A DNA stretch of 44,690 nucleotides. Origin: Candidatus Berkelbacteria bacterium CG_4_10_14_0_2_um_filter_35_9_33_12 (GTDB lineage Bacteria; Patescibacteriota; UBA1384; GWA2-35-9). The first letter of the stretch is position 1; each line of letters begins with the position of its first letter. Location: contig PFQF01000031.1 of assembly GCA_002793435.1 (NCBI GenBank), positions 1-44,690 of the forward strand, written 5' to 3'. Under the pieces are notes generated by a model, which was given only the letters and a program-made list of their open reading frames with translations, was not told the origin of the DNA and did no database searches. Positions 1,265 through 4,325 of this stretch are shown piece after piece. The position numbers were made by a program, and so were the translations under genes.

Positions 1265-1482
1265 GATAAACCCCGCCGGCGTCTGCGAACGCCTCTTGTG
1301 TCGTTACGCCAAAACATTGTAAGCAATGTGCATGCTATGATGTTTTGCTTGTTTGTAATGTTTTGCCGTAATGTAAACCGCTGTTCACTTCGCAGACGCT
1401 GTAATGATATTGATTGATTTTTTAATGTTTATTTGTCGTTCAAAAATTTCCCTCCCCACACCCCTTCCATTTTTTGAACGAC
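1265..1482 (+). repeat. left copy of the islet-flanking inverted repeat (218 bp, including a 94-nt hairpin insertion at 1293-1386)
   Basis: Segments 1265-1292 and 1387-1482 match the reverse complement of 3984-4115 almost base for base. It contains helix gcgtctgcgaa/ttcgcagacgc and helix gtcgttcaaaaa/tttttgaacgac, the latter with loop tttccctccccacaccccttccat. Confidence 0.9.
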
Positions 1483-1500
1483 ATTATTTGAGAATTGTAA

Positions 1501-1809
1501 TTAAGCAAAAACTCTATTTGAAATACGGACTTTAATATTTGGAGCATACATTTTTTGTCGGTTGTGCGATTTTTCTATAATATCGTACAACGGTTGAATA
1601 TTAGTTGGGATTTCGCTAATTGATATTTTATTTATTTTAGTTAGCACAAATAATTCGTCTAAAAACGAACGGGAGATAGAATCGATATTTTCCAGCGATA
1701 CAGCATTATATTTTTGCTCAACTATTTTTTTCACCACAAACCGCACGATTCCCCTTGTCGCACATATAATATCTAAGGTAAATAGTTTTAGTATTTTTGT
1801 TTCTTTCAT
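1501..1809 (-). CDS. DUF4325 / STAS-like domain protein (102 aa)
   Basis: Track ORF 1501-1908. I prefer the ATG at 1809 (MKETKIL...), which follows AGGAGAGAGGAAG. The central ...AVSLENIDSISRSFLDELF... resembles the signature I associate with DUF4325 (STAS fold). This is recalled from memory, not searched. Confidence 0.55.
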   Translation of the reverse strand: MKETKILKLFTLDIICATRGIVRFVVKKIVEQKYNAVSLENIDSISRSFLDELFVLTKINKISISEIPTNIQPLYDIIEKSHNRQKMYAPNIKVRISNRVFA

Positions 1810-1855
1810 ATTTACTTCCTCTCTCCTAAATATTAGTTTACTCCAATTATCATAT

Positions 1856-2422
1856 TTAATCAATATATTGCACATAATCAATCCCAACTTTCTTATACTT
1901 GCCGGCAATAGTTATACCGCTGTCTAGCATACAAACATCGAGATACTCTTTCGCCGGATAAAACTGTGCATTTATCCAGCCGAATTCTGCTTCGGAATGA
2001 TCTTCGATATTAGATATAATTTCATCGATTGCAAGATTTAGTGCACTGACAGAGCCCTCCGGAGAGCCAAGTTTTGATAAGCAAATTGCGATTAAACTTT
2101 CTAAAATAGTTGATTTATCACGCAAGGACTTATCATCTTTTTTAGATGCAGAGAATTTGTAAATTGGAATATATTTAGAAGACGGCAGTTTTGGTTTTGT
2201 TAGCCCACTGGGAAAATTAAAATAATTAAGATACGATTTGCAAACTTCGTCTTTCGGTTTAATATATTTTTTTGAACCTTCACTAATTAAAGCTGAGACC
2301 GGCAAGAGTTCTATCGGATGCATAAATTTTGCATCGCTCAAATCCACGATATCGACAGCGCTTTTTAGCAATTTTATTAAATTTTTAGTTGGTTGAAGAA
2401 TTGATTCCATAGCAGTTACCAT
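1856..2422 (-). CDS. GHKL (HATPase_c, SpoIIAB-like) ATPase-like protein, 188 aa, possibly C-terminally truncated
   Basis: N-box-like DEIISNIEDHSE and G1-box-like LDSGITI lie near the C terminus. The ORF stops 16 aa after G1 and no G2 box is visible. Its start ATG overlaps the stop of the upstream 55-aa ORF (TAATG). Confidence 0.5.
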   Translation of the reverse strand: MVTAMESILQPTKNLIKLLKSAVDIVDLSDAKFMHPIELLPVSALISEGSKKYIKPKDEVCKSYLNYFNFPSGLTKPKLPSSKYIPIYKFSASKKDDKSLRDKSTILESLIAICLSKLGSPEGSVSALNLAIDEIISNIEDHSEAEFGWINAQFYPAKEYLDVCMLDSGITIAGKYKKVGIDYVQYID

Positions 2423-2589
2423 TATTTATGAGTTGCTTCTTCGTCGATATCAGTTATGAAAACTATATTACTTTTATAAATTGGTTTTACAACTGGTGCA
2501 TAATCTGCCATTCTAACCTCGATTATGTTTGGATTATCAGCAACTTTAGATATATCTTTTAACGCTTCGATAAATTCTATTAATTCCAT
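2422..2589 (-). CDS. small hypothetical protein (55 aa), translationally coupled to its neighbours
   Basis: Not in the ORF track. ATG at 2589 lies 9 nt after the dpnI-like stop, with AAGGAAACA between them. Translation: MELIEFIEALKDISKVADNPNIIEVRMADYAPVVKPIYKSNIVFITDIDEEATHK. Its stop overlaps the next ATG. Confidence 0.45.
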   Translation of the reverse strand: MELIEFIEALKDISKVADNPNIIEVRMADYAPVVKPIYKSNIVFITDIDEEATHK

Positions 2590-2598
2590 TGTTTCCTT

Positions 2599-3369
2599 TC
2601 AAGATAACTTGTATTTTCCTTTTGATATAAAACCTACATATCCTTTATCTCGTAGAACTTGTAACTGTTGCCGAATTTTATCTCTAATATGGCGATTATT
2701 TGGGTATTTAATGCGTAATTCGCTTTCAAAAGCATAGACCTCATCAAGTGAAAAATCTTTTTTGCCAAGCTTATCAATACAAATCATAGTCTCTAATAAC
2801 CAACCTTTTGCTTCTGCTTCTTTCTCCTCTCGTAAGAAAAGTGTTTTTTTCCATTCGGCAAGTATTTTTTCTTTTGGTTCAACTTGCTTGTCCTTAACAA
2901 AGAATATTTTTCCTGTTCGTGGAACGCATTGGAGTAAAATATTGCAACCGACCCAACCTGTGCGTCTCGCTGTTTGAGACAATGCTTTACGCCTCTCTAT
3001 AATATCTGGAATAAAAAAGTGCTTAGGGATAACAAGAAAATTTAGAACAGAAAAGTTGTATGGATCGTAATTAAGCAGAAATAAATTTGGATTATTTGAG
3101 CTATGTAAACGTTCAATCATCGTCCGGTATGCCCCATCAACTATTTTTAAGCCAACGGAATCTCTCTTACTCTTTAATTCATAATCTTCGTGACAATTTG
3201 AACAAAAAAAATCTGCAACCGGTTTATTATTTCCGTATTTATCAATACCGAGACGACCGCAGTTTGGACAATAAATCTGCCTGTCAACCCAATCTTCCGT
3301 TAAAACTCTTATTTTTTGTGACGAACTTGTGTATTCGTTAGATAAACTGGTATCAAAAGATAAGTTCAT
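2599..3369 (-). CDS. DpnI-like (Dam-replacing family) methyl-directed type IIM restriction endonuclease, 256 aa
   Basis: From the MNLSFDTSL start it is colinear with pneumococcal DpnI as I remember it: SQKIRVLTEDWV, YCPNCG, PVADFFCSNCHEDYELKSK, DGAY..M, NNPNLFLL, ARRTGWVGCNI, and a C-terminal winged helix ending IRQQLQVLRDKG...GKYKL. Confidence 0.85.
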   Translation of the reverse strand: MNLSFDTSLSNEYTSSSQKIRVLTEDWVDRQIYCPNCGRLGIDKYGNNKPVADFFCSNCHEDYELKSKRDSVGLKIVDGAYRTMIERLHSSNNPNLFLLNYDPYNFSVLNFLVIPKHFFIPDIIERRKALSQTARRTGWVGCNILLQCVPRTGKIFFVKDKQVEPKEKILAEWKKTLFLREEKEAEAKGWLLETMICIDKLGKKDFSLDEVYAFESELRIKYPNNRHIRDKIRQQLQVLRDKGYVGFISKGKYKLS

Positions 3370-3385
3370 TATAAAGGTTATAATC

Positions 3386-3568
3386 TTACTTATCAACGCT
3401 AACTCTTTTGTCGGCATGAACCGTAAAACCTCCATTTGACAAGTTGTAGGGAGGATCCGCAAAAATCATATCAACCGAGTTTTCTTCTATTTCTTCGAGT
3501 AATTTAAAACTATCTCCCAAGTAAAGAGTAAAATTATTTCTTTCAAAATATGGTTTGTCTTTCATCAT
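3386..3568 (-). pseudogene. 5' stump (60 codons) of a beta-class N6-adenine DNA methyltransferase (DpnA / M.DpnIIB-like)
   Basis: ...SVDMIFADPPYNLSNGGFTVHADKRVSVDK* contains motif IV (DPPY) and the SNGG...VSVDK segment, then stops. Full-length enzymes are about 260-300 aa, with the TRD and FxGxG motif downstream. The dpnI-like start lies 17 nt beyond the stop. Confidence 0.8.
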
Positions 3569-3765
3569 CTCACTAGCTCATCAATCTTTATCTCTAACAC
3601 TTTGCAAAGAGAGATTACAGTTTCTATTTTAGGGTTTTTGTTAATCCCATTTTCAATCTTGGCAATAGTGTTTAAAGATACATCTGCTTGACGAGCTAAT
3701 CCCTCCATTGTTATTTGTTTTTGTTTTCTTAATTTTTTCAGATTAACCGCTATGTTATTTGACAT
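3565..3765 (-). CDS. XRE-family HTH regulator, R-M controller (C) protein-like, 66 aa
   Basis: Typical HTH_3 sequence (LKKLRKQKQITMEGLARQADVSLNTIAKIENG). Its stop overlaps the methyltransferase stump start (ATGA), the usual C-M arrangement. Confidence 0.75.
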   Translation of the reverse strand: MSNNIAVNLKKLRKQKQITMEGLARQADVSLNTIAKIENGINKNPKIETVISLCKVLEIKIDELVR

Positions 3766-3780
3766 ATATAGTGTATCAAT

Positions 3781-3796
3781 ATTATACTATAGTATA
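3781..3796 (-). promoter_or_regulatory. candidate C-box operator (14-bp perfect palindrome TATACTATAGTATA, 3783-3796) overlapping a TATAAT -10 (rc of 3781-3786)
   Basis: Palindrome read directly from the sequence. The -10 lies 15 nt upstream of the C-gene ATG and no SD is visible, consistent with a short or leaderless C transcript. Confidence 0.4.
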
Positions 3797-3885
3797 CATA
3801 CTAAAGTAATAATAAAAGTTATTTGTAGCTAAATAAATAGTATCCCATTAACAACCAAAGGTCAAACTTAAAGGGAGTATCAACC

Positions 3886-3921
3886 GTTGCCTGTGCACGA
3901 GTGGGTTGGGGCAAAGGCAAC
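3886..3921 (-). other. stem-loop (11-bp stem with one mismatch) with a C-rich loop on the minus strand (CCCAACCCACUCGU)
   Basis: gttgcctgtgc / gcaaaggcaac arms read directly from the sequence. It sits in a GC-rich patch of otherwise AT-rich spacer. Confidence 0.6.
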
Positions 3922-3983
3922 ACCGCTTTTATATTGGTATAGTTGTATTCTTTTCTTTAATTCCGTCCAACCTAATTCCGTTT

Positions 3984-4115
3984 GTCGTTCAAAAAATGGA
4001 AGGGGTGTGGGGAGGGAAATTTTTTGAACGACGAATAAACATTAAAAATCAATCAATAGTCGTTAGCGCATCTGCGAAGTAGGGAGAGCGTTCGCAGACG
4101 CCGGCGGGGTTTATC
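3984..4115 (-). repeat. right copy of the islet-flanking inverted repeat (132 bp), 5 nt downstream of tRNA-Tyr
   Basis: Its reverse complement matches 1265-1292 plus 1387-1482. Helix 1 carries one G-U change, and the loop is CGCUCUCCCUAC instead of the 94-nt insertion. Helix 2 and its CCCUCCCCACACCCCUUCC loop are identical. Confidence 0.9.
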
Positions 4116-4120
4116 AATTA

Positions 4121-4206
4121 TGGTGCTGGGTGAAGGATTCGAACCTCCGTAGGCATAAGCCAGCTGATTTACAGTCAGCCCTCGTTGACCACTTGAGTAA
4201 CCCAGC
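4121..4206 (-). tRNA. tRNA-Tyr (anticodon GTA), long variable arm, CCA end encoded
   Basis: Reverse complement: GCTGGGT acceptor, anticodon arm GCTGA-CTGTAAA-TCAGC, long variable arm, T arm GGAGG-TTCGAAT-CCTTC, ACCCAGC-A-CCA. 86 nt. Confidence 0.9.
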
Positions 4207-4250
4207 ATATTACACATTTCACTACACATCAATATCCAATTTTTAACCTA

Positions 4251-4325
4251 TGGAGCCGATAAGCGGACTTGAACCGCTGACCTACTCCTTACCATGGAGT
4301 TGCTCTACCACTGAGCTATATCGGC
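4251..4325 (-). tRNA. tRNA-Thr (anticodon GGT), CCA end encoded
   Basis: Reverse complement: GCCGATA acceptor, anticodon arm ACTCC-ATGGTAA-GGAGT, T arm AGCGG-TTCAAGT-CCGCT, TATCGGC-T-CCA. 75 nt. Confidence 0.9.

Follow-up and report, generated by a model that had tools for sequence, protein, structure and literature searches.

We analysed a 44,690-nucleotide contig (PFQF01000031.1; assembly GCA_002793435.1) of Candidatus Berkelbacteria bacterium CG_4_10_14_0_2_um_filter_35_9_33_12, hereafter the window, in which a gene of the DpnI family of methyl-dependent restriction endonucleases follows a small helix-turn-helix (HTH) gene and the first 60 codons of a DpnA-type adenine methyltransferase gene. 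DpnI cuts only GATC DNA carrying N6-methyl-adenine, and enzymes of its type cannot share one cell with GATC methylases. We consider it probable that the arrangement arose when a dpnI cassette replaced the 3' part of the methylase and the cognate nuclease of a controller–methylase–restriction (C-M-R) operon behind an XRE-family controller.

The dpnI gene and the methylase stub

Read on the minus strand, the sequence and its list of open reading frames (ORFs) place a 66-residue HTH gene first, followed by a 60-codon methyltransferase stub, a 16-nt spacer and dpnI (Table 1). The HTH ORF (3765-3565) and the stub ORF (3568-3386) overlap by four nucleotides, ATGA (3568-3565); an initial annotation of the window had described an intact HTH gene running into the start of a methyltransferase ORF in this way, and both the coordinates and a PF01381 match (E = 1.6e-14) bear it out. 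Its account of that ORF likewise holds, motif IV (IFADPPYNLSNGG...VSVDK) and an end after 60 codons both being seen in 3568-3386, but the gap before dpnI, given there as 17 nt, is 16 nt (3385-3370). The arrangement is no assembly artefact, because a protein database search places the stub protein on 34 contigs, an identical independent contig (L085; L numbers denote loci retrieved for comparison, and P0002 and P0291 retrieved proteins) shows it too, and a diverged locus from another sample (L002) repeats the gene order with 74-86% of nucleotides identical to the window.

The gene behind the stub starts with an ATG at 3369, ends with the stop codon 2601-2599 and encodes 256 residues, of which 1-181 match positions 1-182 of the 183 in the DpnI catalytic-domain profile PF06044 (E = 2.1e-79) and 186-254 match the C-terminal winged-helix profile PF17726 (E = 2.2e-31). 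The protein also matches PADLOC mREase_II ('Type II methyl-directed restriction enzyme'; E = 3.4e-118) and, over residues 1-254, the structure of Streptococcus pneumoniae DpnI (Protein Data Bank 4ESJ; E = 2.5e-83), with about 50% identity over its full length. An alignment to DpnI, proposed in the initial annotation as a check of the PD-(D/E)XK residues, shows that PVAD53F...E64-L-K66 and C34xxC37...C56xxC59 are the same as the aligned DpnI residues, D53, E64 and K66 included, and invariant among three homologues; from the structure of DpnI, we take these three residues to be catalytic and the four cysteines to be zinc ligands. Across the whole gene, the ratio of non-synonymous to synonymous substitution rates (dN/dS) is 0.06-0.2. 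By these comparisons the ORF is a complete member of the DpnI family, as had been claimed, with methyl-dependent cleavage as its predicted activity. Authors working on the Neisseria homologue Drg have speculated on regulatory roles via its winged-helix domain (PMC4269198), and the protein in the window might similarly have given up restriction, and any role in defence, to act as a DNA-binding regulator. We find this very improbable: the PD..ExK-type and four-Cys residues are kept at about 50% full-length identity to DpnI, the dN/dS range just given covers the whole gene, the gene sits in a defence island under a controller of restriction-modification (R-M) type, and the systematic loss of adjacent GATC methylases described below fits what an active methyl-dependent nuclease would impose.

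The stub matches only positions 9-46 of NCBIfam PRK11524 (E = 3e-9) and positions 3-58 of the 260 in PADLOC MTase_II (E = 2e-17). It retains motif IV (DPPY) and lacks the target-recognition and S-adenosylmethionine (AdoMet)-binding parts, leaving PF01555 incomplete; judged by these matches, it is a gene fragment and no functional member of the methylase family. All 60 of its residues align to residues 11-70 of LlaDCHIB from the plasmid pSRQ700 (57% identity), in agreement with the DpnA / M.DpnIIB class first proposed for it. LlaDCHIB is the second methylase of its operon and, among plasmid-borne proteins, the best match to the full-length methylase (52.5% identity over 97% of the latter). The pSRQ700 operon, annotated as a DNA adenine methylase, a site-specific methyltransferase and a type II restriction endonuclease, is the DpnII-like LlaDCHI system. 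These alignments, together with the nuclease partners of full-length relatives given below, justify the label 'DpnA-like'.

Searching with full-length relatives (tblastn), we found no C-terminal part of a methyltransferase anywhere in the 44.7-kb window, where matches cover only the N-terminal part of the queries, reaching residue 82 at most and running ungapped past the stub's stop codon; nor did tblastn find any other Dam- or DpnA-like gene in the window. A split or frameshifted yet functional methylase was considered and rejected, there being no C-terminal part downstream or elsewhere in the window. The protein behind the stub in two further loci (L001 and L003), a candidate for the methylase remainder, proved instead to be a HARE-HTH nuclease, to which we return below, and recoding of the stub's stop was discarded as the codon is TAA, which is reassigned in no bacterial code.

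The initial annotation had also raised the prospect that the 60-residue ORF might belong to a conserved family of stand-alone small proteins. A first protein search suggested as much, returning only matches of 53-104 residues, with a similar result from a representative library, but these lists of short proteins are explained by contig-end fragments and candidate selection. In a length-unbiased scan with one genome per species (80 loci, L005-L084, of more than 500 methylase loci retrieved), the methylase gene could be located in 78 loci and is full-length or runs off the contig end in 77 of them; the single true stub is L017. The full-length relatives have 263-310 residues, one longer fusion apart, and are about 75% identical over their whole length. 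When a sister stub was spliced onto a full-length relative as query, 7,999 proteins were matched, with full length (262-332 residues) in every one of the 120 listed. The small-protein reading was rejected on these grounds.

Directly behind the intact methylases lie nucleases of an uncharacterised family of 173-178 residues, here called R173 (27 loci), of the MutH family (10), of DUF6996/DUF6997 (7), of PDDEXK_11 (5), of the DpnII family (4) and of two small families; examples are L006 4797-5315, L016 3144-3911, L038 4817-5428 and L021 3695-4291. MutH/Sau3AI-type and DpnII/MboI-type nucleases act at GATC, and it is from these partners of its relatives, and from LlaDCHIB, that we infer GATC specificity for the lost methylase. 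The best NCBIfam model for the methylase family is CcrM (GANTC), far below its cut-off. Should the family be uniformly GATC-specific, its uncharacterised partners (those of 173-178 residues, DUF6996/DUF6997, a family of about 200 (199-204) residues and the 140-residue PDDEXK_11) would include candidate new GATC restriction enzymes.

Intact operons and recurrent replacement

The intact counterpart of the truncated operon comes from L173, in which a tRNA is followed by 84 nt from the 3' end of the HTH gene (identity about 90%), the same junction between controller and methylase genes, a methylase gene and a nuclease gene. Over the shared region, identity of the methylase (P0291, 281 residues) reaches 95% with the sister stub P0002 and 90% with that of the window, and the 177-residue nuclease belongs to the R173 family (phmmer E = 1e-87). 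With the controller's 3' end, an intact methylase and a nuclease in succession, L173 shows that this island family once included a C-M-R cassette, the origin that the initial annotation had proposed. Nucleotide homology between L173 and the window spans window positions 3654-3389 and ends there, and the methylase-derived sequence of L002 stops at the same ...GATAAR; the junction between methylase and dpnI therefore lies at 3389/3388. Alignment to related methylase–restriction (M-R) cassettes, the means suggested at the outset for finding the breakpoint, thus placed the end of homology at 3389, inside the predicted interval of about 3370-3390.

Other dpnI loci carry the marks of the same replacement. 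From a metagenome scan with a DpnI alignment, which gave more than 500 dpnI loci, we compared 80 with DpnI 66-100% identical, and the frequencies that follow are rough. A methylase N-terminal stub stands directly upstream of dpnI in 23 of the 80, as it does in L002 and L017, and the C-terminal part of the methylase is absent in all 23. The stub ORFs measure 33-124 residues, and the methylase part ends at about ten positions, among them ...YND, ...LPEN, ...EMI, ...VNKG, ...SNGL, ...DDY, ...FHL, ...AEWI and ...PHGTV. In 20 of the 26 stub-bearing loci (these 23, the window, L002 and L017) the reading frame of the stub continues into dpnI, with its stop 4, 10 or 17 nt inside, and in five further loci only vestiges are left, such as MQKPFYEKPRF or ...RPYF joined to the beginning of dpnI.

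On the far side of dpnI, a 3' remnant of a restriction gene is found in 24 of the 80 loci and in L017, at 80-370 nt (mostly 140-220) past the stop codon. The remnants are 59-89% identical to intact restriction genes and fall into the MutH-like (13), R173 (5), DUF6997 (3), DpnII (3) and R199 (199 residues; 1) families. Both edges can be followed in L086 when it is set against the intact L033: methylase 5' homology pairs L086 2861-3006 with L033 227-371, nuclease 3' homology pairs L086 3938-4413 with L033 1241-1716, and between them dpnI plus about 165 nt stands in place of 869 nt of L033. The plainest case is L122, with a 97-codon methylase stub, dpnI and residues 147-304 of a DpnII-family nuclease. 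Judging by these methylase stubs and restriction-gene remnants, dpnI cassettes have recurrently overwritten the 3' end of the methylase gene and the 5' end of the nuclease gene.

Stub-bearing and stub-less loci are interleaved across the whole clade in the dpnI tree, and one dpnI subclade forms an erosion series of 75 residues, 38 residues and a vestige. At columns at least 93% conserved in full-length genes, stubs deviate at 5.1% against 1.2%, 4.4 times as often (Fisher p = 2e-9), which points to relaxed constraint, and many stubs are without any deviation at these columns. Several stubs have their nearest relative in a full-length methylase and not in another stub (L017 shares 92% identity with L011 and 78% with the best stub), and two loci with the same junction, L094 and L100, differ by a synonymous divergence (dS) of 0.08 in dpnI and 0.70 in the stub, with differences reaching to within 20 nt of the junction. 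By these measures the histories of dpnI and stub are discordant.

A stub might instead be a selected, functional small protein that regulates or counteracts the nuclease or that interferes, as a dominant-negative fragment, with GATC methylases, and would then form a two-gene module with its neighbour. Such a module would agree with the very low dN/dS of the stubs (0.02-0.07 at dS 0.5-1.6 among the four island stubs of the window, L002, L171 and L001; 0.01 between L171 and L001, which share one junction and differ at 19 synonymous and two non-synonymous sites; 0.08-0.26 pairwise among other dpnI loci), with stub ORFs that are intact and overlap the nuclease start in most loci, and with the presence of the same stub ahead of two unrelated nucleases. 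We nevertheless hold it to be unlikely. Stub length runs from 124 to 33 residues and on to vestiges of 4-12 residues, several stubs lack DPPY, about two thirds of the close dpnI homologues have no stub at all, the 4.4-fold excess of deviations falls on invariant positions, and the fragment is without the AdoMet-binding half of the fold. Given intact alleles of 90-95% identity and the discordant histories, a low dN/dS can also date from the time when the gene was functional; we read it, tentatively, as the product of recent truncation together with recombination with intact alleles such as L173. Because the intact L173 exists and dpnI and stub histories disagree, we favour a turnover in which stubs would be mostly young and most of their divergence would have gathered in working genes.

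Putative controller module and defence island

The view of the HTH gene as a controller, put forward in the initial annotation, agrees with its position and with a palindrome upstream of it; the protein sequence itself is that of a generic XRE HTH protein, matching PADLOC HTH_VI at 3e-11 and Control_protein at 7.9e-5, weaker than both HTH_VI and capH. Homologues of 62-92% identity head other R-M or defence cassettes, close ones precede the M-R cassettes of L166, L167 and L173, and dN/dS for the HTH gene between islands is 0.06-0.23. One homologue (L168 5001-9450; 62% protein identity) heads genes for OLD-like ATPase/TOPRIM and Mrr_cat/nSTAND3 proteins, and the regulator module appears to be a portable unit that can head defence operons.

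The leader ahead of the HTH gene is 82-91% identical in L166, L002 and L167 despite differing downstream cassettes. It contains a promoter-like TTGACC-17-TACTAT at 3865-3837 and a TATAAT at 3786-3781, the latter overlapped by the palindromes TATACTATAGTATA and TAGTAT-AC-ATACTA (3783-3803). These palindromes are invariant in four loci; the stretch TAGTATGTATACTATAGTATAAT, of which they are the plus-strand equivalent, is invariant in all four. The half-sites TAGTAT/ATACTA (3783-3803), with ACACTA (3774-3769), form a putative operator of the HTH protein. A stretch of the leader at 3819-3925 (GGTGTTGCCTTTGCCCCAACCC...GCAGGCAAC), GC-rich above all at about 3866-3925, is also conserved in four loci, has a 7-bp inverted repeat and could encode a 34-residue peptide; an RNA element in the conserved leader was considered and set aside, with no Rfam match and an unexceptional fold (z = -1.65).

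Between the HTH gene and dpnI we found no terminator-like site, and the 16-nt spacer holds no Shine-Dalgarno-like purine run before dpnI. A promoter of dpnI's own was rejected: the -10 box of a TTGATA-17-TATAAT match at 3396-3368 overlaps the ATG, and the match therefore cannot yield dpnI mRNA. Promoter-like matches are in any case near chance level, with 11 found and 7.3 expected.

Window positions 1436-4032 make up a small defence island in the chromosome, flanked by tRNA-Tyr and tRNA-Thr. It interrupts a cluster of tRNA and ribosomal-protein genes (840-1202 and 4121-4325) in the order tRNA-Thr(GGT), tRNA-Tyr, island, tRNA-Thr(TGT), tRNA-Trp, and a 55-residue zinc-ribbon-like ORF between the last two tRNA genes is probably rpmG. 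A 48-nt hairpin (14-bp stem, G-rich loop) occurs in the window in only two copies, which are inverted and sit inside inverted-repeat arms of roughly 140-225 nt at 3983-4121, abutting tRNA-Tyr, and at 1259-1483, next to tRNA-Thr. Because the same hairpin bounds the L166 island in a different genomic neighbourhood (L166 4749-4781 and 8779-8809), the whole island may be mobile or invertible; a degenerate-pattern search for the hairpin in the fetched loci found nothing, with a pattern that was probably too strict.

Within these flanks the slot behind the controller is variously filled. Window 4016-3567 (450 nt, HTH gene included) is 91% identical to L166 and 82% to L167; homology to L166 is lost at the controller's stop codon and picks up again at window 1882, in the DUF4325 gene, whose region is 77% identical in nucleotides to L166 8382-8809. 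Where the window and L002 have the stub, dpnI, a 55-residue ORF and a HATPase-like gene (269 residues in L002), L173 has the intact methylase and R173 nuclease, L166 (5001-8274) a Dam-type methylase, two unknown genes and a DpnII/MboI-like nuclease, and L167 (239-3277) two beta-class methylases and a 408-residue protein. In L171 the slot holds a 76-codon stub, a HARE-HTH/PD-(D/E)XK nuclease and a 52-residue ORF (s52), and in L001 a DUF5655 gene (PADLOC PDC-S18), a stub and the same HARE-HTH nuclease. Separate contigs of related genomes thus show conserved flanks around methylating or methyl-restricting inserts, the pattern of alternative cassettes.

Across the controller gene and the stub, as far as ...GGCAAAAGAG, identity between L171 and L002 is roughly 90%, and close similarity returns where the small ORF begins. 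Because only the 3' end of the stub and the nuclease gene differ, the nuclease must have been exchanged in situ between dpnI and the HARE-HTH nuclease, and the immediate predecessor of dpnI in the window may already have been a stub-led nuclease. The HARE-HTH nuclease, of 245-246 residues (L171 757-1497, L001 1311-2051, L003 5660-6397), joins an N-terminal HARE-HTH domain to a C-terminal part that resembles PD-(D/E)XK enzymes and is recorded as Pfam NmeDI_C. In every case it is preceded by a stub of the same methylase, 76-86 codons long, with stop and start overlapping or abutting. A search for relatives of solved structure found none; the protein is a candidate new methyl-dependent restriction enzyme.

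These exchanges bear on where the switch took place. A unit of stub, dpnI and small ORF (s55) might have been imported ready-made behind the portable controller module, or might have replaced another stub-led nuclease, the switch itself having occurred in another genome; we regard this as a real but lesser possibility. Stub–dpnI units do occur in many unrelated contexts without this controller gene, the controller module fronts unrelated cassettes, with L166 homology breaking at its stop codon, and L171 combines the same controller, stub and s52 with the HARE-HTH nuclease. Between the window and L002, moreover, dN is 0.16 for dpnI and 0.07 for the controller or the stub, and few intact operons of this methylase family have an XRE gene ahead of them (no more than 2 among the 24 short upstream proteins scanned). 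L173, however, has the intact methylase and nuclease behind the same controller 3' end, with the same controller/methylase junction. Import would concern the place and time of the switch and is largely compatible with the replacement of a C-M-R operon that we propose.

The gene behind dpnI in the window, s55, matches no family in Pfam, NCBIfam or PADLOC. Its homologues lie behind dpnI, or behind the alternative nuclease, in 16 loci, and elsewhere other small-ORF families fill the position. As a universal partner of dpnI it was rejected, standing directly behind dpnI in only 9 of about 65 loci. Altogether, three unrelated families of 50-65-residue ORFs follow dpnI, mostly directly: s55-like (16 loci), 'famA' (11) and 'famB' (26), with examples at L156 3781-3951, L086 about 3772-3938 and L094 about 1371-1569. 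They recall the pneumococcal dpnD by position, and none of the three occurs in 79 intact methylase–nuclease loci. The HATPase-like gene that follows s55 is 257 nt shorter in the window than in L002 (188 against 269 residues) and is probably a pseudogene; the full-length version has a weak PADLOC match to DrmA (1.2e-7).

Table 1. Features of the island and of the dpnI operon in the window
Feature	Position	Strand	Basis
HTH gene, putative controller (C) protein, 66 aa	3565..3765	-	PF01381 1.6e-14
Methyltransferase 5' stub, 60 codons, DpnA/LlaDCHIB-type beta-class N6-adenine	3386..3568	-	profile matches, L173 comparison
Methylase/dpnI junction spacer, 16 nt	3370..3385	-	sequence; window and L002 diverge here
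dpnI, type IIM G-m6A-TC-dependent restriction endonuclease family, 256 aa	2599..3369	-	PF06044, PF17726, 4ESJ
s55 small ORF, 55 aa	2422..2589	-	accompanies dpnI; homologues in 16 loci
HATPase-like gene, 188 aa, shortened	1856..2422	-	L002 comparison; weak PF13581 match
DUF4325/STAS-like gene, right-hand island module	1501..1908	-	PF14213 E 0.0038; L166 identity
C-operon leader, conserved	3766..3983	-	82-91% identical in L166, L002, L167
48-nt hairpin element, left island edge	3984..4032	+	two inverted copies in window
48-nt hairpin element, inverted copy, right island edge	1436..1483	-	arm 1259-1483

Proposed history and known systems

We propose that the ancestral operon consisted of an XRE controller, a DpnA-type (GATC, N6-adenine) methyltransferase and a small restriction nuclease, and that dpnI with its 55-codon ORF took the place of all that followed codon 60 of the methylase, a single step that would have removed modification and cognate restriction together. 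Controller, stub and dpnI would now form one transcript from a controller-regulated promoter, the HTH protein acting upstream of its own gene, and for dpnI, which has no ribosome-binding site of its own, we suggest re-initiation of translation behind the stub ORF. Its product would attack G-m6A-TC DNA entering the cell, such as that of phages or plasmids from Dam+ or DpnII-type hosts, and GATC sites of the host would necessarily be unmethylated. The window would be one case of a process that recurs in Patescibacteria-like genomes. With the methylase 5' and nuclease 3' stubs as sites of homologous recombination, cassettes would pass from one diverged operon to another, and the stubs would later erode by deletion. 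A replacement across the methylase/nuclease boundary would be the one event that ends methylation without leaving an active cognate nuclease, which would explain why the scar recurs. We speculate that delay of nuclease expression by the controller could aid establishment while the old methylation dilutes.

Several points weigh against this history. The controller gene of L173 is itself 5'-truncated, and no fully intact C-M-R example was recovered; the window holds no restriction-gene remnant, and the right-hand breakpoint of the original replacement therefore cannot be located here. The HTH protein matches no solved C protein at E < 0.01, its resemblance to characterised C proteins being unconvincing (the PADLOC Control_protein match above), and the 16-nt gap of the window, where most other loci have overlapping stop and start, makes coupling less obvious. 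The GATC specificity of the lost methylase is drawn from relatives, the target-recognition domain being the very part that is missing, and the low dN/dS of the four island stubs, L171 and L001 above all, is what one would expect of a gene still in use.

A bolder view, which we offer tentatively and think more doubtful than not, is that dpnI and its small ORFs are mobile overwriters of GATC R-M operons in Patescibacteria, with the stubs as working homology arms and expression adapters rather than passive scars and the HARE-HTH nuclease (L171, L001, L003) as a new G-m6A-TC-dependent family. Such cassettes would enter by recombination through the conserved methylase 5' and restriction-gene 3' ends, their one-step removal of modification and restriction would escape post-segregational killing, and the methylase start region would provide translationally coupled, controller-delayed expression.

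As a proxy for past DpnII-type restriction, GATC depletion proved uninformative: the window has 144 GATC sites against 160 expected (0.90) and is not depleted. Over its whole length (1-44690) other palindromic tetramers are very scarce, observed against expected counts being 0/35 for CGCG, 0/48 for GGCC, 4/46 for ACGT and 30/62 for CATG, which suggests long exposure to restriction at these sites.

To our knowledge, the way in which a lineage survives the switch from a methylating to a methyl-restricting system has been studied in only two cultivated genera. The loci described here are natural records of it, in which intact (L173, L033) and gutted (window, L086, L122) operons can be compared base by base. 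They lead to the prediction that this Berkelbacteria genome is GATC-unmethylated and offer as candidates both new GATC restriction enzymes (the 173-residue, DUF6996/6997 and 199-204-residue families) and one new methyl-dependent nuclease. They also carry a warning for annotation, as many 'methyltransferase' ORFs of 50-100 residues in genomes of the candidate phyla radiation (CPR) can be operon scars.

Among the closest known systems are the DpnI (dpnC-dpnD) and DpnII (dpnM-dpnA-dpnB) cassettes of S. pneumoniae, which are mutually exclusive at one locus. The window resembles them in its DpnI homologue, in the DpnA class of its lost methylase, in the small gene beside dpnI, and in the alternation of cassettes in one slot between conserved flanks in related genomes. 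It departs from them in that the cassette boundary lies inside the methylase here, and elsewhere inside the restriction gene, leaving stubs; in the XRE controller that heads the cassette; in the partner nucleases of the intact operons, which come from at least five families; and in its hosts, which are uncultivated Patescibacteria. Type II R-M systems under C-protein control, such as PvuII, AhdI and Esp1396I with their canonical C-box GACT..AGTC, likewise have a small HTH gene first in the operon that overlaps the next gene; the palindrome over a -10-like box and the near-leaderless start are shared too, and the module fronts bona fide M-R cassettes. By contrast, the half-sites here are TAGTAT/ATACTA, the match of the 66-residue HTH protein to control proteins is weak, and the nuclease is predicted to be methyl-dependent and has no partner methylase. 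LlaDCHI (LlaII) of the Lactococcus plasmid pSRQ700, the source, in its second methylase, of the nearest plasmid-borne relative of the stub family, is intact and methylating, with two methylases and no dpnI.

A further close system is the dam-replacing gene, drg (NmeBII), of Neisseria, which is inserted in dam and truncates it (PMC4269198, PMC516771), just as a DpnI-family gene truncates a GATC-type methylase gene in the window and in 23 of the 80 metagenomic loci. The truncated gene there is an orphan alpha-class dam, whereas here it is the beta-class methylase of an M-R operon; nothing described for the Neisseria case includes a restriction-gene stub, a controller or an overlap of stub and nuclease frames; and its few events fall in one genus, where the dpnI replacements reported here have many junctions across a broad clade. 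In N. gonorrhoeae (L170 2500-4226) drg is 47% identical to the dpnI product of the window, and about 250 nt past it lies an unannotated sequence of a beta-class methylase, matching residues 13-258 of the one in L037; a DpnIIB-like gene has been reported beside gonococcal drg (PMC4269198). Full-text searches of a literature library found no description of a stub-leaving replacement of an M-R operon by dpnI, and relative to the known cases the loci described here appear to be new in their target, an M-R operon, in the stubs of both its genes, in their overlapping frames, in the XRE controller, and in a recurrence that extends across at least five restriction families.

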